Shown: in pieces, positions 32,480-45,869 of the stretch
Layout: every line of letters starts with the position of its first letter
Position numbering within the stretch: position 1 is the stretch's first letter
Source of the DNA: an uncultured Bacteroidaceae bacterium
GTDB taxonomy: Bacteria; Bacteroidota; Bacteroidia; Bacteroidales; P3
Reading direction: 5' to 3'
Length of the DNA stretch: 64,000 nucleotides
Assembly (NCBI GenBank): GCA_964442435.1
Contig: CAYTZG010000003.1
Coordinates: 43,802 to 107,801 of the forward strand
The notes under the pieces: model-generated
What the model saw: only the letters and a program-made list of their open reading frames with translations
The model's database searches: none
Told to the model about the DNA's origin: nothing
Position numbers and translations under genes: made by a program

Positions 32480-33931
32480 TTATGCCCAAATTGGAACATA
32501 GTGTGCATATTTTCGTGAGCGGTTTGCATCATCTAATTTTATATAATTGGCATTTACAGTCTCTGATATAATTCGTGAAGCAATAGAATAGTTTTCTGGA
32601 CTAATGGCCAGTCGCCCTCTAAAACTTTCGTTTGTCATTTTTTCTCCAGAAATGTATTGAAGACAGCAATGTTGATAGCAAGCCCTTATTTTGTCTTCTT
32701 TATTCATTTGACGTAAGGTTCTTGGAGAAAACATGGTTATTTTTGTATATAAATCATCCTGCGCAAAATCAGGTGCGGGTAATTGATATATCTCACATTC
32801 TGATAATGCTCGATCAATACCACTTCCCCGTTCTTCACAAAAATTCATTCTTCTCATAGTGTAGGCCAAACGTTCATTTCTGCTGATAGGTGCATGATCT
32901 ATAAAGCGCAGAGTATCAATCAAAGGCTTGCCTGGATTGGTTATTTCCAAACGATTTTTAAAAATTTCAATCATGGGAGATGTGCCTCCAATGGAAAAAT
33001 CTTGATGAATTAACGCATTAGCAACAAATTCGCGTATAGCAATGGGTGGATACATAGGTTTATTTGTTCTTAATGCTTTCCCGATTTCTTCGTTGACAGG
33101 TAAATTTGAATTTATATAATCCGTTAGTTCTTCAAAACCGGTGGCATACCCCTTTATATGAATTTTTTCTTTAATGGTGTTTATTCTGTCGTTTCCTTTA
33201 TAAAAAATTACTCTTACTGCTTTTCGTGATAGATTGCCAAATGTGTTTAGGTCTATGGAAAAAAGAATAGCCCCAAGATTGGTAATGTCATAACAAGATG
33301 GGCGTTTTTCTATAATATGCTCCTCAGATAATTTTTCTAATATTGCATCTTTATTTTCCGGTAGAGGAATGCCTAACAATCTAAATGCAGTAGGATAGTC
33401 AATTAAAGATAAAACATCGTCTGCATTCAATCCTTGTTTTGCGATTTTTGATTCAAAGAAATGATGATGGGTATTTTGCCAAATCTTTCGTTCGCGTTCA
33501 GGGTGGTCAGCAAGTTTTTTTTTGCATGAACCTACCCTTATGTAAGCTGTATTTTTAAATTTGACAGGTGTATTACCAGCTGCATCTATAATAAATATAA
33601 CAATACGTTTGCCTTGGATACATGTTTCGTGGATGGAAAAATCAATGCGAGGGCTTAGTTGAGTGGCTATCCAGTTTTCAATTTCTTGATTTCCAATTTT
33701 TTCTTTTTGTGGATTAAATGTCGTTCCGATAATTGCATGGGTAGTATCATCGAAACCGAAGGCTAAATAACCTGTGGATTGCCCCATGTAAGCTGCCCCA
33801 TTGGATAATGCGGAAATATATTCCCCTATCAATTCGGGTTGATAGTTATCTTTTTTTAGTTCAATCCATTCGCATTCTTTTGGAGAAGCTTGAATGTCTG
33901 ATACAATTGTTTCGAGTTCTTTGTTTCCCAT
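32480..33931 (-). CDS. AlbA_2 (Schlafen-like) + HATPase_c_4-type putative DNA/RNA-binding ATP-binding protein
   Basis: 483 aa. The N-terminus ..ECEWIELKKDNY.PELIGEYISALSNGAAY.. is typical of the divergent AAA/AlbA_2 domain. The central ..REFVANALIHQDF...G..P.IEIF.NRLEI.NPG matches HATPase_c_4. Very AT-rich, with a TATCTTTG -7 box on the minus strand at 33964-33971. Confidence 0.7.
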   Translation of the reverse strand: MGNKELETIVSDIQASPKECEWIELKKDNYQPELIGEYISALSNGAAYMGQSTGYLAFGFDDTTHAIIGTTFNPQKEKIGNQEIENWIATQLSPRIDFSIHETCIQGKRIVIFIIDAAGNTPVKFKNTAYIRVGSCKKKLADHPERERKIWQNTHHHFFESKIAKQGLNADDVLSLIDYPTAFRLLGIPLPENKDAILEKLSEEHIIEKRPSCYDITNLGAILFSIDLNTFGNLSRKAVRVIFYKGNDRINTIKEKIHIKGYATGFEELTDYINSNLPVNEEIGKALRTNKPMYPPIAIREFVANALIHQDFSIGGTSPMIEIFKNRLEITNPGKPLIDTLRFIDHAPISRNERLAYTMRRMNFCEERGSGIDRALSECEIYQLPAPDFAQDDLYTKITMFSPRTLRQMNKEDKIRACYQHCCLQYISGEKMTNESFRGRLAISPENYSIASRIISETVNANYIKLDDANRSRKYAHYVPIWA

Positions 33932-39525: not shown

Positions 39526-40485
39526 CTATTTAAACGCTTGGAAGCCCTTGCCATACACGCCCGTGGCTTTCGTCACGCTCGTAAAGGCGTCGGGGTCAAT
39601 GTCACGTATGCGGCGCAACACGTTCTGCATCTCGTATTTACGCACCACGGCAAACAATACGTTCGATTGCTTCTTCGAATAAAAACCCTTGGCGTCCAAG
39701 AGCGTCACCCCACGGTGCATCTCGGTGCTGATCATTTCGGCTATTTCCTCGTGTTTGTTGGAGGAAATGAGCATCTGCACGCTCGACTGCGCACCCATCA
39801 CGATGAGGTCTATCGTGTAGGACGTCACCGTCATGACCACAAAGCCGTACAGCACGACCCGCAACGATTCCTCCGGCGATTTCCCAAGGAAATAGTAGAA
39901 AATGAGGAAAGACGACGAGATGATGCCGAGGTCGCAGTAAAGGATGACCCGACCCGGGCTGACGTTGTGGTATTTGGTGATAATCAGCGCCACGATGTCG
40001 GTGCCGCCCGTGCTGCCGCCGTAGTTGAAGGCCGTGCCCACCGACAGCCCGATGAGCGCGCCGCCGATAACGGCCGACAGGAACGGGTCCTGATCCAAAA
40101 CCGGCTGTTTGAGCAGCCCCTGCCAAAGCGTTACGAAAAACGACAGGAAGAAAATGGCCCATACCGTTTTGAAACCGAACGCATTGCCGAGGATTTTAAA
40201 GCCGATGAGCAACAAGACGGCGTTGATGACGAAGGCCGAGATACCGACCGGAATCCGGTGCCCCGTGGCATAGTACAACAGCGTGGAGATACCGTTCACG
40301 CCGCCGCTGACGATGTTCGAGTTGATGATGAACATCACGAGCGCGAAGGCGTAGAGGCACAGACAGAGCGTGATAACGATGTAACTCTTTACCTCACGCT
40401 TGACCTGCTTCTTATCCAACGGCTTCGCCGGAAACAACTCTTTCCAGAACGGTTTCTTGCCCTTGGCGTCCGATTGTTCGCTCAT
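39526..40485 (-). CDS. YitT-family membrane protein (DUF2179 C-terminal domain)
   Basis: 319 aa. Several TM segments with GG..G..LL.. motifs and a C-terminus ..HRGVTLLDAKGFYS...SNVLFAVVRKYEMQNVLRRIRDIDPDAF..V..A.GVYG.GF. The minus-strand TATCTTTG box lies at 40559-40566. Confidence 0.8.
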   Translation of the reverse strand: MSEQSDAKGKKPFWKELFPAKPLDKKQVKREVKSYIVITLCLCLYAFALVMFIINSNIVSGGVNGISTLLYYATGHRIPVGISAFVINAVLLLIGFKILGNAFGFKTVWAIFFLSFFVTLWQGLLKQPVLDQDPFLSAVIGGALIGLSVGTAFNYGGSTGGTDIVALIITKYHNVSPGRVILYCDLGIISSSFLIFYYFLGKSPEESLRVVLYGFVVMTVTSYTIDLIVMGAQSSVQMLISSNKHEEIAEMISTEMHRGVTLLDAKGFYSKKQSNVLFAVVRKYEMQNVLRRIRDIDPDAFTSVTKATGVYGKGFQAFK

Positions 40486-40596: not shown

Positions 40597-40708
40597 GGCG
40601 CACCGCGCCGCCACAGAGTGGCGTGCGTAAGGATAAGGCCGCCGTCGAAAACTTGTTTTCAGATGGCGGCCTTATCCTTACGGCGGCGTTGCCGCTGCGC
40701 GGTGCGCC
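40597..40708. repeat. 112-nt GC-rich nested palindrome predicted to fold as a four-way (cloverleaf-like) structure
   Basis: Outer 12-bp stem ggcgcaccgcgc/gcgcggtgcgcc (40597-40608 / 40697-40708). It encloses hairpins cgcca-cagag-tggcg, an 18-bp perfect stem cgtaaggataaggccgcc/ggcggccttatccttacg (40626-40643 / 40665-40682) with an inner gaaaac-tt-gttttc, and gcggc-gtt-gccgc. Confidence 0.7.
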
Positions 40709-40838
40709 CTACATTGTCGTCGAATGCCGAAACGCCGCCTATCTTCACCGATTAGGTAAAGAAGGGTCTTAAATCCATGTTTGTCGCAAAAACATAAAGA
40801 GGTTATCAATGAAATTTTGTGCATTAGAGATGTTTTTG

Positions 40839-40846
40839 TATCTTTG
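40839..40846 (+). promoter_or_regulatory. Bacteroidota promoter of the three-gene cassette (-7 TATCTTTG; -33 TTTG at 40816-40819)
   Basis: Exact consensus boxes 20 nt apart, 33 nt upstream of the ATG at 40879. Confidence 0.6.
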
Positions 40847-40878
40847 TTACAAAAGTTTTAAATAGGGTATGTTATAAA

Positions 40879-41748
40879 ATGGTTATTACAAATGCAAATA
40901 AAGAGTCGATTAGGCTGAGGAATTTATCTTCAGCTTTTTCTCGTAGTGCATTTGTAGATGTCTTAAATTACAATGATTATTCCCATTTAAATTGGTTGGC
41001 ATCAAAATATGGTACTTTAAAATGTACTACATATTTGGAACTGCTCAACAAGTCATATTTTTTAATATCTAAATATTACAGATGTGAATATGTGTATAAG
41101 AATGAGTTAATAAAACTTCTTCTTAAAAAATATGGAACAAAAAATTCTGTGTATTTTAGCGAATTTAGAGTTGGGAACTCTATTGCTGATATGGTGATGT
41201 TTAATGGTGAGAGTAAAGCATTTGAAATCAAAACCGAGTATGATACTTTTCGGAGATTGGATAAACAAATGGAAGATTATAAACGCTTTTTTGATAAATG
41301 TTACTTAGTTGTTCCGGAAGACAGATTAGAAGAATACTCTAAGATCAACGAATCCACAACAGGGATTATAGTAATGAGTCAAAATAACGGGCGTATTTTT
41401 TTAAAGGAGGTTAAATCAGCATATCAGAAAGACCACTTTGAGTCAGATGCATTAATGTCTTGCCTTAGGACGGCCGAGTATAAAAATATCGTATTGTCTT
41501 TGGGTATTTCTTTGGATGGAGTTGCGGGTTATGATATGTATACATTTTGCTGCAAGGTCATTTCCCATGCAGATCCAGGCAAGGTTCGTGAGCTTTTCCT
41601 ACGTGAGATAAAAAAGCGTAAAAACAATACATCACTATTGCGAAAATACCCTGCCTCAATCAGACAAATGATGCTAAGTTTGAATTTGCCAGAAGGCAAG
41701 GCGAGTAAATTATTGGAACAATTGAATATTAATATAAATCAAGCATAG
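40879..41748 (+). CDS. PD-(D/E)xK nuclease-fold protein, sce7726-like
   Basis: 289 aa. E95..D104..E116-x-K118 in SEFRVGNSIADMVMFNGESKAFEIKTEYDTFRRLDKQMEDYKRFFDKCYLVVPE. The pattern matches my recollection of the NCBIfam sce7726 family (..D.A....G....EIKS..D...RL..Q...Y...FD). Confidence 0.6.
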   Translation: MVITNANKESIRLRNLSSAFSRSAFVDVLNYNDYSHLNWLASKYGTLKCTTYLELLNKSYFLISKYYRCEYVYKNELIKLLLKKYGTKNSVYFSEFRVGNSIADMVMFNGESKAFEIKTEYDTFRRLDKQMEDYKRFFDKCYLVVPEDRLEEYSKINESTTGIIVMSQNNGRIFLKEVKSAYQKDHFESDALMSCLRTAEYKNIVLSLGISLDGVAGYDMYTFCCKVISHADPGKVRELFLREIKKRKNNTSLLRKYPASIRQMMLSLNLPEGKASKLLEQLNININQA

Positions 41749-41751
41749 ATT

Positions 41752-42696
41752 ATGTATTATCCATATCTTCGTGCAAAGCAATATGAACTTAAGGCTTTAA
41801 AAGAATTTTCTAGAGAGCACCAAGAGCAGGATTCTATAACGCCGATATTAGAACCGGTAAAACAACAGCCTAATGCATTGAATGTTGCAATAGATGAAAT
41901 GCTTACCAACGGATTAAAGTTTGCATTGATCTTAAATCCAAAAGAAGGGGATTTTAAGCACCCCACAGTCCGTTTTGATGCATGGTTTCAGAATACAAGA
42001 TTAATGGAGAATCAAGAGGGGTGGATACCTGCGTTTCTTTATTCTAGACGTAATGTTCATGAAATATTATCAATAATTAATGAATATCAACTTGAGCATG
42101 CTATGATTATATTCCGCACTTGTATGGATATGGACGATAGAGATGCGTGGGAAATAATCAATAGTGATTCTATTAAATATGTTGTAAATTCATTCGGATC
42201 CACCTCAAGAAGATTAAGAAGCAAACTAAAAGAAACGAAAAAGCAGGTTATTCGATTAGATGATTGTTTTAAATCAAGGGTTCGTAATGCAGACTATGCA
42301 CTTGAAGTGGATGAATTGTTTTCTGAGGAACCATTTTTCTATGCAGACGAAGGTTTGGATGGGTATTCAGATTATACCACACTGCCATCGGAGTATATAG
42401 AAGGTGGTATGTTGCCACATGCTTTAGTTATTCATCTTTCATATAAAAGAAATGAGGAACAACTATATGTTCATCATTTTGTTTCCGATAGCAATGATAC
42501 TAATAACGATATTCGCGGAAAATTTAGAGAAGCAGCAAGGAAGGTCGCACCCTTTTATAAAGATAAGTCCCCAACGGAAGCTGTTAGAGAACTTATTGAA
42601 AAGGCAAATGATCCAGAAGGGTATCCTGGACTCGGATATTTGAAGAAATTATCTGTAAAGAACCACTTGGAATTAATCCTCTCACTAAAAAAGTAA
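41752..42696 (+). CDS. Beta_protein (PF14350)/sce7725-like protein of unknown function
   Basis: 314 aa. The N-terminus MYYPYLRAKQYELKALKEFS..ITPILEPV is characteristic of that family as I remember it. It starts 3 nt after the upstream stop. Confidence 0.5.
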   Translation: MYYPYLRAKQYELKALKEFSREHQEQDSITPILEPVKQQPNALNVAIDEMLTNGLKFALILNPKEGDFKHPTVRFDAWFQNTRLMENQEGWIPAFLYSRRNVHEILSIINEYQLEHAMIIFRTCMDMDDRDAWEIINSDSIKYVVNSFGSTSRRLRSKLKETKKQVIRLDDCFKSRVRNADYALEVDELFSEEPFFYADEGLDGYSDYTTLPSEYIEGGMLPHALVIHLSYKRNEEQLYVHHFVSDSNDTNNDIRGKFREAARKVAPFYKDKSPTEAVRELIEKANDPEGYPGLGYLKKLSVKNHLELILSLKK

Positions 42697-42702
42697 TCAC
42701 GT

Positions 42703-43704
42703 ATGTATATATGTAAGGACTGTTTTCTTGATGAGGAATTACGTTCTGAGATAAATTCCAATGCTACTATTGAAGGCGTATGCGAGGTCTGCGGAACAGA
42801 AGGAAAACTAATGGATTTTTCTGAATTTCATGGTTTCTTTGCAGCCATACTCTCCATGTTTTCCACAACAGATAACGGTGATAAAACAATAGTTGATGTT
42901 ATCCAAGAAGAGTGGAATCTCTTTAAGAATAAAGAAGTCGCGCAGGTATTGTTGTCTGATGTTATTGACACGTGCGATTGTGGATACTCAATAGACGCTT
43001 ATGTAGATTATACAGGTGAGGTTCAAGAACGTGTTGCTGTTTGGGATAGGCTGAAGACCAGTGTAAAAGAAAATTTTCGCTTTTTCACTGATATGGATGA
43101 ATTTGCCCAATATAACTATCTTTCAGCAGATAAAATTATACCTATTGGCCAAAAACTATATCGTTCTCGCATTACCCCTGTTGGTCTTCAAAAGATTCGA
43201 TGTAAAGAAATGGGATGTCCTCCGAAAGATTTAGCCTCTGCCGGACGTGCTAATCCAATAGGAATACCATACTTATATTTGAGTGACTCTGCTAAAACAA
43301 CATATTTTGAGGTTCGAGCTGTATATTTAGACCAATTAAGTGTTGGAACATTCAGGATAGAACGCGAATTAAAACTTGTTGATTTTATGTATGATATAAG
43401 TTTGTTTTGGGCGTACAATGATGATTCAACACCACTAAAAGAATTTGTAATCAAGAAAAAAATCATTGATGCGATAAGTAAAGATCTATCCAAGCCCCTC
43501 CGTAGGTATGATTCAGAATTGGAATACGTCCCAACTCAATTTATATGTGAGTATTGTAAATATGTAGTGGGTGCAGATGGTGTTACTTTTGGGAGTTCTT
43601 TGCATAAAGGGGGACGCAATTATGTTTTATTTGATGAATCTGCGGTAAAATGTATAAGAGTAGATTCACACGAAATAACACGGATAGACATTGATAGAAA
43701 ATGA
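42703..43704 (+). CDS. Zinc-ribbon (HEPN/RES-NTD1-like) + RES-domain effector (predicted NAD+-targeting toxin)
   Basis: 333 aa with C4-x2-C7...C27-x2-C30 at the N-terminus. RES signature: LYRSR.., AGRANPIGIPYLYLSDSAKTTYFEV (Arg and Glu) and GVTFGSSLHKGGRNYVLF (Ser). It starts 6 nt after the upstream stop. Confidence 0.65.
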   Translation: MYICKDCFLDEELRSEINSNATIEGVCEVCGTEGKLMDFSEFHGFFAAILSMFSTTDNGDKTIVDVIQEEWNLFKNKEVAQVLLSDVIDTCDCGYSIDAYVDYTGEVQERVAVWDRLKTSVKENFRFFTDMDEFAQYNYLSADKIIPIGQKLYRSRITPVGLQKIRCKEMGCPPKDLASAGRANPIGIPYLYLSDSAKTTYFEVRAVYLDQLSVGTFRIERELKLVDFMYDISLFWAYNDDSTPLKEFVIKKKIIDAISKDLSKPLRRYDSELEYVPTQFICEYCKYVVGADGVTFGSSLHKGGRNYVLFDESAVKCIRVDSHEITRIDIDRK

Positions 43705-43724
43705 TATAAATAACGCCAAATTCT

Positions 43725-43865
43725 ATGTCGTTAATTATTGCATTATATTTGGGTGAAGGTATTGTTATGGCTAGTGATAGTAGAACAACATTTAGTTTTA
43801 CCTCTACAATGCCAGATGGGACTATTATTCAGAATAATGGAGTTCTAAACAAAAAGAGGATTTAA
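43725..43865 (+). pseudogene. N-terminal fragment of an Ntn-hydrolase/proteasome-beta(HslV)-like gene
   Basis: 46-codon ORF MSLIIALYLGEGIVMASDSRTTFSFTSTMPDGTIIQNNGVLNKKRI-stop. The G.V.ASDSR.T pattern resembles the start of proteasome-type subunits, but the ORF is far too short to be functional. Confidence 0.35.
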
Positions 43866-43907
43866 AATTAATAGATAAACATTTTTGACTTTAATCTATT
43901 AAAAAAA

Positions 43908-44438
43908 ATGAAAAAGTTAATCGCAATGTTAATGATTCTGTCGCCGATTATGGCAATGGCGCAGAAGATTCAAAAGAACGAAATTGATAAGTTCACCAAA
44001 CAGCGTCTTGTTGAGACAAAAATGGAAACTCTTGCGAAGTTCAATAAATGGAAAAGCCTCAGGGCGGATAACACAAGATTGAACATTGGGGTCAGATTTT
44101 TGAACGGCGACTGGGTTTTCCCTGCCATGATTGTTCTTGATGATTGCGAAAAAGTTACTGAAAGAAACGGTGTATTGTTTTTACTTGACAATGGAGAAAC
44201 CATAACATCAACGACCGCATACACGGGTATTTTTGAAAGTTCCCAGGAACCAGGAAGCTCTCTGTGGAGGTTCAATACCGTTTTATACGTTGATCAAAAC
44301 GACGTACCCAAACTGAAGAATGGTAAAATAACAGATATTCGTATAAGTGTTTTGGGGCGCAATTTCGACTTACCTGTGGAGGAAGGGAAGCAAGACTTAA
44401 TCAGTAGAATGATTACTTTAATAGAATCAAAACTTTGA
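43908..44438 (+). CDS. Hypothetical small secreted protein
   Basis: 176 aa. Signal peptide MKKLIAMLMILSPIMAMAQ, AT-rich, no family recognised. Confidence 0.5.
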   Translation: MKKLIAMLMILSPIMAMAQKIQKNEIDKFTKQRLVETKMETLAKFNKWKSLRADNTRLNIGVRFLNGDWVFPAMIVLDDCEKVTERNGVLFLLDNGETITSTTAYTGIFESSQEPGSSLWRFNTVLYVDQNDVPKLKNGKITDIRISVLGRNFDLPVEEGKQDLISRMITLIESKL

Positions 44439-44771
44439 GCATGTTAAGGGTTCTTTCTCTTAATAACTGGTTGCTTCAGTAAACATAAAAGACAAGAAAC
44501 GAGATAAAGGTTGACCTCATGAAAGATTATCTAGGTAATCGTTTTCGCCATTTGTCACCACAAAATACACCTCTGAAACAATAAAGCCTCCTAATTTACT
44601 ACCTAATCTTCTATTTTCGCAATTAAGGCTTCCCGTATACGAGATGCATCCTCTTTTGGCAACTCACCCCCCAACAATCTATCTGCCGATCTAATTATAA
44701 TCAAATCGCCCTTTCCCGTTTCTCTCCGATATTTCGTATCTTCGCAACCTTGTTCGCGGCAATTTGCGCTT

Positions 44772-45869
44772 ATGGGAATGCTGATATTCTATCTGCTGTT
44801 GGCCCTCGTGGTCTCTTTCGTGTGCTCGGTGCTGGAGTCGGTGCTGCTGTCCGCGCCGCCCTCCTACGAGGAGGTGCTGCGGCAACAGGCCGAGGAGGAG
44901 GCGGAGGGCGAGAAGTCGCGCTCGGCGCGGCGGCGGCTCAAGGACGCGACGCTGTTCGGCCGTATGAAGGCCGACGTTGAGAAGCCCCTGTCTTCCATCC
45001 TGTCGCTCAACACGATAGCGCATACCGTCGGGGCGGCCGGCGTGGGGGCGCAAAGCCTCAAGGTGTTCGGCGACGTCTATGCCGGTCTTACGTCGGCCGT
45101 GCTTACGTTCCTCATCCTCATCCTCTCCGAAATCCTGCCCAAGTCGGTCGGCGCGCGTTACTGGAAAAGCCTCATCGTGCCGTCCTGTTACGTTATCCGC
45201 GTGTTGGTCTGGATTTGCTATCCGCTCGTGTGGCTGTCGGAGGGCGTCACCTACCTCGTCACGCGCGGCAAGAGCGAACCGACCGTCAGCCGCCAGGAGG
45301 TGGAGGCGGTCGTCAACATGGGTTCCAAAGAAGGCATCCTGCAGGCCGGCGAGGCGCAGACGTTGCGCAGTATGCTGGCGTTCCGCGACTTAAGGGTGCG
45401 CGACATCATGACCCCGCGCATGGTGGCGGTCACGGTCAGCGAAAACATGACGTTGCGCGATTTCTTCTACAAGAAAAACTATCTCAAATACTCGCGTATT
45501 CCCGTTTACAAGGGGCAGAACCCCGAACACATCACGGGCTTCGTGTTGCTCAAAGACGTGTTTACGGGCGTGGCCGAAGATGATTTCGACAAAAAGCTGC
45601 TGGCCTTGAAGCGGCCGCTTTCCATCGTGTCGGCCTATCAGCGCGTGCCGGGGCTGTGGGAGCGGATGCGCCGTCGCAAGGAACAGATTGCGATGGTGGT
45701 GGACGAATACGGCACGTTCGTGGGCTTGGTCACGCTCGAAGACCTGATAGAAACGATGCTTGGCTACGAGATTGTGGACGAGAAAGATACGATTACCGAC
45801 CTGCAAGCCTACGCGCGGCGCAAGTCGTCCGAAAAGCAAGACAAGACCGATGACAAAGACCGAAATTAA
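44772..45869 (+). CDS. CNNM/HlyC/CorC-family transporter-associated protein (DUF21 + CBS pair)
   Basis: 365 aa. The N-terminal TM region carries LESVLLS..., ..LSSILSLNTIAHTVGAAG.. and then CBS domains (VRDIMTPR..MV.V.., ..YSRIPVY.., ..IAMVVDEYGTFVGLVTLEDLIE). Confidence 0.8.
   Translation: MGMLIFYLLLALVVSFVCSVLESVLLSAPPSYEEVLRQQAEEEAEGEKSRSARRRLKDATLFGRMKADVEKPLSSILSLNTIAHTVGAAGVGAQSLKVFGDVYAGLTSAVLTFLILILSEILPKSVGARYWKSLIVPSCYVIRVLVWICYPLVWLSEGVTYLVTRGKSEPTVSRQEVEAVVNMGSKEGILQAGEAQTLRSMLAFRDLRVRDIMTPRMVAVTVSENMTLRDFFYKKNYLKYSRIPVYKGQNPEHITGFVLLKDVFTGVAEDDFDKKLLALKRPLSIVSAYQRVPGLWERMRRRKEQIAMVVDEYGTFVGLVTLEDLIETMLGYEIVDEKDTITDLQAYARRKSSEKQDKTDDKDRN

Follow-up and report, generated by a model that had tools for sequence, protein, structure and literature searches.

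A predicted anti-phage operon of gut Bacteroidales and other bacteria in which a zinc-ribbon RES protein appears to replace Gop of the Gop-β-cII system

Gene content of the operon

In a 64,000-nucleotide (nt) stretch of contig CAYTZG010000003.1 (the window, numbered from its first letter), which comes from a metagenome-assembled genome of an uncultured member of the Bacteroidales, we analyzed an operon of three genes (the triad; 40879-43704, + strand) that looks like a widespread anti-phage variant of the Gop-β-cII system of phage P4, a satellite phage, with Gop replaced by a zinc-ribbon RES enzyme. The operon consists of open reading frame (ORF) 1 (40879-41748, 289 amino acids (aa)), ORF2 (41752-42696, 314 aa) and ORF3 (42703-43704, 333 aa), all on the + strand and separated by gaps of 3 nt and 6 nt, respectively. 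A single reading frame is common to the three genes, with nothing between them except a stop codon and one or two further codons; the shared frame is probably incidental, and with such an arrangement, read-through or fusion variants of the triad should be easy to generate.

The operon is preceded by a Bacteroidetes-type promoter (40816-40846, + strand) that comprises a -33 TTTG element (40816-40819), a 19-nt spacer and the -7 element TATCTTTG (40839-40846), with the ATG of ORF1 located 32 nt downstream of the latter. The Bacteroidetes promoter consensus, said to have been defined by Bayley and colleagues in 2000, reads TTTG-N19-21-TAnnTTTG. Each of 14 related Bacteroidales-type loci has a TAnnTTTG box at a distance of 25-59 nt ahead of its first gene, including loci that are otherwise different in sequence around the box; a scan for sigma-70 promoters and intrinsic terminators is uninformative for a Bacteroidetes genome.

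ORF1 is a member of the sce7726 family (NCBIfam; E = 2e-47, 161.5 bits, cut-off 70), which is also the family of the cII protein of phage P4. The two proteins share 28% identity (BLASTP, E = 2e-17), the PADLOC 'cll' model recognizes ORF1 with E = 7.6e-23, the Pfam family PF26915 (Phage_P4_cII) is assigned to it in the precomputed annotation, and the P4 RefSeq record labels cII a 'sce7726 family protein' and β a 'beta family protein'. The predicted PD-(D/E)xK-type nuclease core of ORF1 includes the residues E70, E95, D104, E116-x-K118 and Q130-x3-Y134, that is, the D…(D/E)xK arrangement with an upstream acidic residue that makes up the catalytic motif of these nucleases. An alignment of 131 diverse family members, P4 cII included, shows no variation at E70, D104, E116, K118, D122 and Q130 and at least 90% conservation at E95 and Y134; we read the E…D…ExK…QxxxY pattern as a RecB/Cas4-like PD-(D/E)xK signature. 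Pfam and profile searches detected in ORF1 no CARF, SAVED, SLOG or other recognizable nucleotide-signal sensor domain, and the matches of the ORF1 profile to designer PPR proteins in the Protein Data Bank (PDB) were discarded as repeat artefacts. Sequence and profile searches with each of the three proteins of the operon yielded no genuine match among PDB chains. The sce7726/cII family forms 1,843 representative clusters at 50% identity, and its members are also found standalone, for example, beside a type I restriction subunit in Staphylococcus aureus.

ORF2 belongs to the sce7725 family (NCBIfam; E = 9e-80, 268.6 bits, cut-off 60), so that sce7726 and sce7725 proteins, both scoring above their curated cut-offs, are encoded side by side, 3 nt apart. 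The similarity of ORF2 to the Pfam family Beta_protein (E = 9.4e-7) is confined to the N-terminal residues 2-50, the pairwise comparison with P4 β yields 19% identity (BLASTP, E = 1e-3), and the comparison with the P4-type Beta profile reaches 74% probability over 201 columns (hhalign, E = 2.8e-5). Several relatives of ORF2 match both the sce7725 and the Beta hidden Markov models (HMMs) that we built, and the link between ORF2 and P4 Beta is, as far as these comparisons go, real but distant. The AlphaFold model of ORF2 (predicted local distance difference test score (pLDDT) 82.7, predicted template modelling score 0.85; low confidence in residues 175-220) consists of alternating strands and helices in a TIM-barrel-like (β/α) fold. 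All top Foldseek matches of this model in the PDB are TIM-barrel enzymes, at weak scores (best E = 1e-2, TM-score 0.3-0.45; no match at E <= 1e-3), and the best viral match is an uncharacterized 379-aa protein of a Gordonia phage (E = 5e-7, TM-score 0.6). The residues of ORF2 that are invariant across phyla (R7, K9, E34, N62, D171, D207, H228, H242, S245, K257, K298/299, H305 and E307) lie mostly at or just past the C-terminal ends of the predicted strands, the location of the catalytic face of TIM barrels. Because these invariant polar residues map to the catalytic face, the model suggests that ORF2 is an enzyme or a ligand-binding protein rather than a passive antitoxin. Our sce7725 search retrieved approximately 4,200 clusters at 90% identity; PHROGs lists the relatives of both ORF1 and ORF2 under 'unknown function'.

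ORF3, the predicted effector, combines a four-cysteine zinc ribbon (42712-42792; C4, C7, C27 and C30), a mostly helical region similar to HEPN/RES-NTD1 (42793-43230) and a RES domain (43231-43671, residues 177-323), which covers positions 21-151 of the 157 positions of the Pfam model PF08808 (E = 8.4e-12, 45.8 bits, cut-off 23.2). Three of the zinc-ribbon cysteines (C7, C27 and C30) are invariant, and every aligned homolog with a complete N-terminus has C4 as well. The Pfam HEPN/RES-NTD1 model (PF18870) does not match ORF3 itself at E <= 1 but is matched by its full-length relatives (E = 1.9e-6, above the cut-off, 5.9e-6 and, for the triad member from Moraxella, 9.8e-5), so the region is assigned to NTD1 by transitivity; its own invariant residues are W114, R126, F128, R154 and R156. 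Full-length homologs in Proteobacteria and Bacillota, at 25-31% identity, share C7, C27, C30, R154, R156, R182, N184, Y192, E203, R205, Y275, S298 and N306. The RES domain, accordingly, retains the eponymous R182, E203 and S298, along with Y192/Y275 and N306 of the R/Y/N set. RES domains are classic toxins of toxin-antitoxin (TA) systems. They have been described as a divergent clade of ADP-ribosyltransferases (ARTs) with the R/Y/N residue set (PMC9503650), and NCBI names the homologs of ORF3 'RES family NAD+ phosphorylase'. BLASTP produced no alignment between ORF3 and P4 Gop, and sequence profiles of ORF3 did not reach the solved RES toxins in the PDB.

Proteins with the NTD1-RES architecture exist outside triads as well, namely, as standalone genes in Bacillus, in Enterobacter and in a P2-like prophage of Escherichia coli. 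On the chromosome of E. coli KE47 (NZ_CP141089.1; locus L049, 3692-7152), a standalone 384-aa zinc-ribbon-NTD1-RES protein is encoded after a 647-aa KAP NTPase that matches the PADLOC candidate PDC-S49 (3e-156). Both genes lie between P2-like replication/dam genes and portal/terminase genes, by our reading of the ORFs at the position of the P2 defence hotspot, and the KAP NTPase and the RES protein may form a two-gene system of their own.

The original prediction had described three genes with 3- and 6-nt gaps behind a consensus promoter (TTTG and TATCTTTG) in an AT-rich block of a GC-rich chromosome, had numbered the motif residues E95, D104, E116 and K118 of ORF1 and the four cysteines of ORF3, had assigned the sce7726, sce7725, Beta_protein and RES families and had pointed to the lack of an Xre antitoxin; the coordinates, the promoter survey, the base composition and the family searches agree with it throughout. 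For the zinc ribbon and NTD1-like N-terminus that it proposed, the cysteines are in place and the architecture is a described one (PMC3710099), and NTD1 is matched by the relatives but not by ORF3 itself. As for profile and structure support, Pfam bears out the RES domain and the invariance of the motif in 131 proteins speaks for the PD-(D/E)xK nuclease, whereas the fold of ORF1 was not confirmed either by AlphaFold or by the profile search of the PDB.

Conservation and genomic contexts of the triad

The order of the cII-like, sce7725 and NTD1-RES genes is strictly syntenic in Bacteroidota and in Alpha-, Beta- and Gammaproteobacteria. A scan of a genome collection that started from the ORF2 sequence alone returned close relatives only and found the triad in 8 further Bacteroidales species of Bacteroides, Paludibacteraceae, Porphyromonadaceae, Millionella and Prevotella (60-84% identity). 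It is also present in a lineage typified by Alistipes putredinis, one protein of which is indexed in 678 collection blocks, in three more divergent lineages of Bacteroidales and on a gut 'bacteriophage' scaffold (46-50% identity). Outside the Bacteroidales, Pseudorhizobium, Moraxella, Shinella, Rhizobium and Ralstonia have plasmid-borne triads, and Salmonella houtenae has one in an integrative and conjugative element (ICE); among plasmid records with an sce7725 match, 13 of 15 carry RES and sce7726 matches as well. The island that holds the triad in the window contains no mobility gene, and the triad is followed by cargo with no relation to it, namely, ORF4 and a fragment of a gene (46 aa; see below), so that one might think of three unrelated foreign genes that came to be neighbours by chance or persist as non-functional remnants. 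However, the gene order is strictly kept across phyla between proteins that share 25-85% identity, none of the three ORFs is disrupted, their invariant catalytic residues are in place, and the promoter is conserved; these conservation data effectively refute chance adjacency.

For a census of neighbourhoods, 121 further loci were fetched with a diverse sce7725 profile, and the adjacent genes were scored with purpose-built HMMs. The 80 metagenome loci comprise 61 intact triads, 15 loci in which the RES or NTD part is cut by the contig end or disrupted, and 4 in which the contig ends before the third gene; neither a pair without RES nor an alternative third gene was found among them (0 in each case). 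RES is the third gene in all informative metagenomic loci (76/76), and the triad is conserved as an operon, as the original prediction demanded. Among the 41 viral and proviral loci, which are more distant (26-36% identity), 20 intact triads (nine of them near-identical) were found next to 3 loci with a cut or disrupted RES/NTD, 1 in which the contig ends before the third gene and 17 pairs without RES, 5 of which have the reversed order, with β ahead of cII.

The existence of RES-less pairs in proviruses, the invariant E…D…ExK…QxxxY motif of ORF1 and the standalone sce7726 protein of S. aureus, encoded beside a type I restriction subunit, are compatible with a nuclease-centred, restriction-like system, in which ORF1 would degrade the invading DNA and the products of the other two genes would have accessory roles, RES being a suicide mechanism held in reserve. 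We regard this scenario as very unlikely, given that the triad includes no modification or self/non-self component, that the core of the ORF1 model has a pLDDT of only about 30 and no PDB profile match, and that none of the informative sce7725-type metagenomic loci lacks RES, which speaks for a core component rather than an accessory.

The reversed pairs (L135 and L138-L141, all from IMG/VR proviral contigs) are preceded by HTH-Peptidase_S24 genes or by Xre and Peptidase_M78 (ImmA/IrrE) genes, and one of them (L141) also has an HSDR_N nuclease-like protein upstream. The layout recalls the Xre-peptidase and Beta-like components of PD-λ-2, and these neighbours could belong either to a module of that kind or to the immunity region of the prophage; in view of the second option, we do not claim them as alternative effectors. 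A different variant was observed on the Enterococcus faecium plasmid p114-2 (L023, 4306-6513) and in a 'Listeria phage' contig (L026), where sce7725 stands between a 229-aa protein with an ExK-type motif and no family match and a 170-aa GNAT acetyltransferase; the GNAT protein in the third position may represent another effector swap. P4, Bacillus thuringiensis and Sinorhizobium share the P4-type layout, in which a small variable gene is followed by a gene for a full-length Beta_protein that is convergent with cII; the third gene, unannotated in each case, differs from one to the next. The parts are modular, as indicated by the standalone occurrence of sce7726 and NTD1-RES proteins, and pairs of the sce7725 type nearly always come with RES.

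Decayed copies are common, with the RES gene split or truncated, with sce7725 split or interrupted, or with the cII-like gene left alone (L042, 7963-8961; L056, L058, L074, L080, L089, L165; L077, L093; L024; L033). In Arthrobacter, sce7725 is interrupted by IS3, and in some decayed loci the cII-like gene remains as the only one beside a PLD-SNF2 helicase. The frequent decay of RES and sce7725 fits a costly, toxic system.

Triads often reside on plasmids, ICEs and proviruses and in defence islands. Those of the Alistipes type have a constant downstream side, with IS66, a 1,021-aa Eco57I/MmeI-type methyltransferase-restriction enzyme and a 1,097-aa PLD-SNF2 helicase, and a variable upstream side, with integrases, relaxase/MobC, Toprim and replication-initiator genes. 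Another triad lineage is found near DUF3987/HTH_17 mobile-element genes, and Tn3 and IS110 are among the neighbours of triads as well. Among 149 proteins encoded in the flanks of non-redundant triad loci, there are strong matches to type I restriction-modification subunits, the DRT UG5-nitrilase reverse transcriptase, DrmD and several PDC candidates, along with integrases, IstB, phage regulators and ordinary housekeeping genes. In five gut Bacteroidales loci (L040-L044), the triad lies inside capsular-polysaccharide/glycosyltransferase loci, four of which (L040-L043) also encode DarT-Macro and an AAA_15/21 ATPase; capsule and glycosyltransferase loci may be integration hotspots for defence genes in Bacteroidales.

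The frequency of the triad on plasmids, ICEs and mobile islands, together with the place of RES proteins among the typical TA toxins, raises the prospect of a tripartite addiction module that stabilizes these elements by post-segregational killing, with no dedicated anti-phage role; Gop and β, too, were first described as toxin-antitoxin-like (PMC9122126). We consider this explanation rather unlikely, because the homologous P4 system does defend its host, because three genes with an enzyme-like partner and a nuclease-like protein are more elaborate than addiction would need, and because triads are also found in chromosomal defence islands and capsule loci. It should be noted that addiction and defence are not mutually exclusive roles.

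In the window, the triad lies within an AT-rich block (approximately 40750-44700; the borders are taken from the composition profile) in which the GC content is 31-39% compared with 52-69% in the flanks and which contains the triad and non-conserved cargo. The block is a foreign, horizontally acquired island. It is inserted between host yitT (39526-40485, - strand) and a gene for a CBS-domain/CNNM-type protein (44772-45869, + strand), among housekeeping genes that encode PckA, the YitT-family membrane protein, the CBS-domain/CNNM-type protein and a major facilitator superfamily transporter. Scans for ORFs, repeats and tRNAs detected no integrase, tRNA or meaningful flanking direct repeat at the island borders; the ORF list and Pfam show no Xre-type gene within the island, and scans for an RNA antitoxin returned neither an Rfam RNA nor a tandem-repeat array. 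The island DNA matches no plasmid sequence, and no empty site was found among contigs that encode an identical flanking YitT protein, every one of which that is long enough carries the island.

The cargo includes ORF4 (43908-44438, + strand), a 176-aa protein with a signal-peptide-like N-terminal segment, for which Pfam, NCBIfam, PADLOC and PHROGs gave no family; it occurs together with the triad in this strain only, is not conserved with it and is best placed outside the system. Immediately after ORF3 comes a 46-aa ORF (43725-43865, + strand) that begins with MSLIIALYLGEGIVMASDSRTT… and is annotated as a gene in sister contigs. It resembles what is left of the 5' part of a longer gene, which, as judged by eye, may have been of the Ntn/proteasome-like type. 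On the other side of the triad, DNA of host composition between yitT and the island harbours a GC-rich nested inverted repeat (40597-40708), the inner hairpin of which (40626-40682) has 26-nt arms that are 88% complementary and a loop of 5 nt. The repeat may serve as a terminator or may be an element of the REP (repetitive extragenic palindromic) kind that marks the insertion site. A second AT-rich block (32480-33931, - strand; GC 33-36%), again between GC-rich housekeeping genes, encodes a lone 483-aa protein with Schlafen AlbA_2 and HATPase_c_4 domains and weak PADLOC matches (pAgo-associated PNTD, 8e-8; PDC-S50, 1.4e-3); it may be another horizontally acquired gene of the defence type.

Proposed mode of action

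The homology to P4 Gop-β-cII, the requirement for the Beta-like component in PD-λ-2 and the known biochemistry of RES toxins together suggest that the triad is a mobile system directed against phages or other mobile genetic elements that acts in the manner of abortive infection or TA modules, with RES as the effector, the Beta-like protein as the component that restrains or licenses it, and the cII-like protein as a sensor of, or weapon against, DNA. We put the probability of this defence reading at roughly 60%. The frequent occurrence of triads in mobile and defence contexts is in keeping with the abortive-infection role that had been proposed originally, which is plausible. The gene structure, the homologies, the predicted ORF2 fold, the conservation of the catalytic motifs, the synteny across phyla and the genomic contexts come directly from the analysis, whereas the functional steps, namely, sensing, the order of inhibition and the RES chemistry, we infer throughout from the homologies. 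The RES domain of ORF3 would consume NAD+ by phosphorolysis or hydrolysis or, alternatively, would ADP-ribosylate a target, and the infected cell would, as a consequence, be arrested or killed. ORF2 would silence this effector in uninfected cells and/or license it upon infection; both options are considered because β neutralizes Gop in P4, and the Beta-like component of PD-λ-2 (PD-λ-2C) is needed for defence and not for neutralization. ORF1 would sense or process the invading DNA or, conceivably, would act as a second, DNA-directed effector.

Several observations weigh against this defence reading or against parts of it. The analogy supplies little mechanistic detail because the mechanism of Gop-β-cII is itself unknown, and the chemistry varies among the known RES proteins, so NAD+ depletion by ORF3 is not assured. 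The relationship between ORF2 and Beta is distant and strongest over the N-terminal two thirds, and the match of ORF2 to the PADLOC 'beta' model (0.023) falls below the threshold of the gop_beta_cll model. No ORF of the triad matches the PADLOC gop model, for which P4 Gop itself scores 4.8e-70, and PADLOC (2023 models) detects the cII-like gene only. For ORF1, the AlphaFold model, built on a shallow alignment (75-91% identity), is unusable (pLDDT 56, core about 30), a deep profile of the family has no genuine match among PDB chains, and the Pfam matches are marginal; they point to HSDR_N_2, to PDDEXK_3 and, for 5 of the 131 aligned proteins, to MmcB-like (best 4e-4), families that we take to belong to the PD-(D/E)xK clan. 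The enzyme-like invariant residues of ORF2 may argue for a role beyond that of a passive antitoxin. Finally, the association with defence and mobile genes, which the original prediction had expected, is frequent but amounts to no proven enrichment, the flank scan having no background control; some triads lie among housekeeping or capsule genes, and in the island of the window no other defence gene adjoins the triad.

The features of ORF2 and ORF1 also bear on a signalling scheme in which RES, alone or together with ORF2, makes or processes an ADP-ribose-derived molecule that activates the cII-like nuclease, which would then be the true effector. The invariant polar residues on the catalytic face of the TIM-barrel-like model, the intact nuclease motif in 131 diverse members of the ORF1 family and the inclusion of RES by Iyer et al. 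2022 (PMC9503650) among the NAD+-utilizing, signal-generating domains of prokaryotic immunity all accord with such a pathway. Nevertheless, we deem it unlikely: ORF1 has no recognizable nucleotide-signal sensor domain of the CARF, SAVED or SLOG type, the third gene of P4 encodes a small membrane protein that could not make a signal and yet β and cII are kept, NTD1-RES proteins also exist alone, and the characterized RES proteins act as toxins. In a more speculative vein, and with comparably low odds, Beta and sce7725 proteins might be unrecognized TIM-barrel enzymes that detect or convert a metabolite, either phage-induced or derived from NAD+, and thereby gate RES or the cII-like nuclease, which would amount to a new NAD+-linked immune pathway. 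If so, gating by metabolites would also explain the mechanism of P4 Gop-β-cII and the Beta requirement of PD-λ-2.

Under the preferred defence reading, the triad would add to the gut Bacteroidota a defence system that current annotation tools miss, with a bearing on the prediction of phage-host relationships and on phage therapy in the microbiome. The families involved are large (approximately 1,800 sce7726/cII and 4,200 sce7725 clusters), and their only studied relative is Gop-β-cII, the mechanism of which is unknown. The RES-containing form is the dominant sce7725-type arrangement and is common in human-gut Bacteroidales, and the predicted RES effector has an easy biochemical read-out, the NAD+ level; because the triad is both common and tractable in this way, it offers a good entry point to sensing and toxin control by Beta-like and cII-like proteins. 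A TIM-barrel-like fold with enzyme-like conserved residues is unexpected in a supposed 'antitoxin', and an enzyme-like Beta/sce7725 component could explain how infection is sensed across the Gop-β-cII/PD-λ-2 group.

Comparison with known systems

The exact combination of sce7726, sce7725 and RES is not described in the literature covered by our full-text searches (for sce7725/sce7726, gop-beta-cII and RES-NTD1), and PADLOC would not call the triad, as originally expected. By contrast, the claim that neither sce7726 nor sce7725 has a known function did not hold: sce7726 is the P4 cII family and Beta_protein is the family of P4 β, both components of a validated defence system, and the related Gop-β-cII and PD-λ-2 systems have been described. 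Thus, novelty was overstated in the original prediction, the sequence-level description of which is sound.

In RES-Xre TA systems, such as MbcT/MbcA, Res/Xre of Pseudomonas putida and ParT/ParS, the toxin has, like ORF3, a RES catalytic domain with the conserved residues, and NAD+-directed toxicity is predicted for ORF3 in turn. In the triad, however, RES shares its polypeptide with a zinc ribbon and an NTD1-like domain, and its partners are a TIM-barrel-like and a nuclease-like protein; because no Xre/DUF2384-type antitoxin gene is present in the island or in the related triad loci, the triad is not a RES-Xre TA system. Thoeris, DSR and SIR2/TIR-pAgo are abortive-infection systems with NADase effectors. 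The triad resembles them in the predicted loss of NAD+ that would halt phage replication and differs from them in the effector, which is RES of the ART superfamily rather than SIR2 or TIR, and in the sensing components, which are unrelated. The domain architecture of ORF3 is of a described type: Anantharaman et al. 2013 defined HEPN/RES-NTD1 computationally and noted that some RES fusions bear a further N-terminal zinc ribbon (PMC3710099), with the same order of domains as in ORF3. That description covers the single protein and not its linkage to sce7725 and sce7726.

PD-λ-2 shares with the triad a Beta-like third component, which in that system is dispensable for toxin neutralization and required for defence (Vassallo 2022, PMC9519451); P4 Beta matches the PADLOC model PD-Lambda-2_C with 8e-14, and ORF2 shows a weak N-terminal match to it (0.0041). 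The other components of PD-λ-2 are a HigB-like protein and an Xre-peptidase fusion, with no cII-like gene and no RES, and the island in the window has no HigB-like or Xre-peptidase gene, so the triad is not PD-λ-2.

The closest known counterpart is Gop-β-cII, which protects E. coli against λ and P1 and in which Gop is toxic in the absence of β (Rousset 2022, PMC9122126); it is orf184, an accessory gene of a phage, that sets off this toxicity (bioRxiv 10.1101/2023.04.06.535777). Both systems consist of three genes, two of which have homologs in the triad (cII is an sce7726 protein, and β is distantly related to sce7725), both are found on mobile elements and in defence hotspots, and in both the third gene product is toxic, as shown for Gop, or predicted to be so, as for ORF3. 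The two also differ. Gop (133 aa) has hydrophobic, transmembrane-like segments in its N-terminal part and belongs to no Pfam family, whereas ORF3 is a 333-aa zinc-ribbon-NTD1-RES protein; the triad has the order cII, β, RES on one strand, whereas in P4 gop precedes β and both are convergent with cII; sce7725 is an NCBIfam family separate from P4-type Beta; and ORF1 has an extra N-terminal extension of approximately 65 aa. With Gop absent and the gene order different, the triad is not a member of gop_beta_cll as defined in PADLOC/DefenseFinder. Nevertheless, because the validated system has cII and β among its three genes, the triad is, judging from these homologies, not a wholly new kind of system but an effector-swapped, rearranged relative of Gop-β-cII and, by implication, a widespread RES-bearing variant of a kind that is already known.

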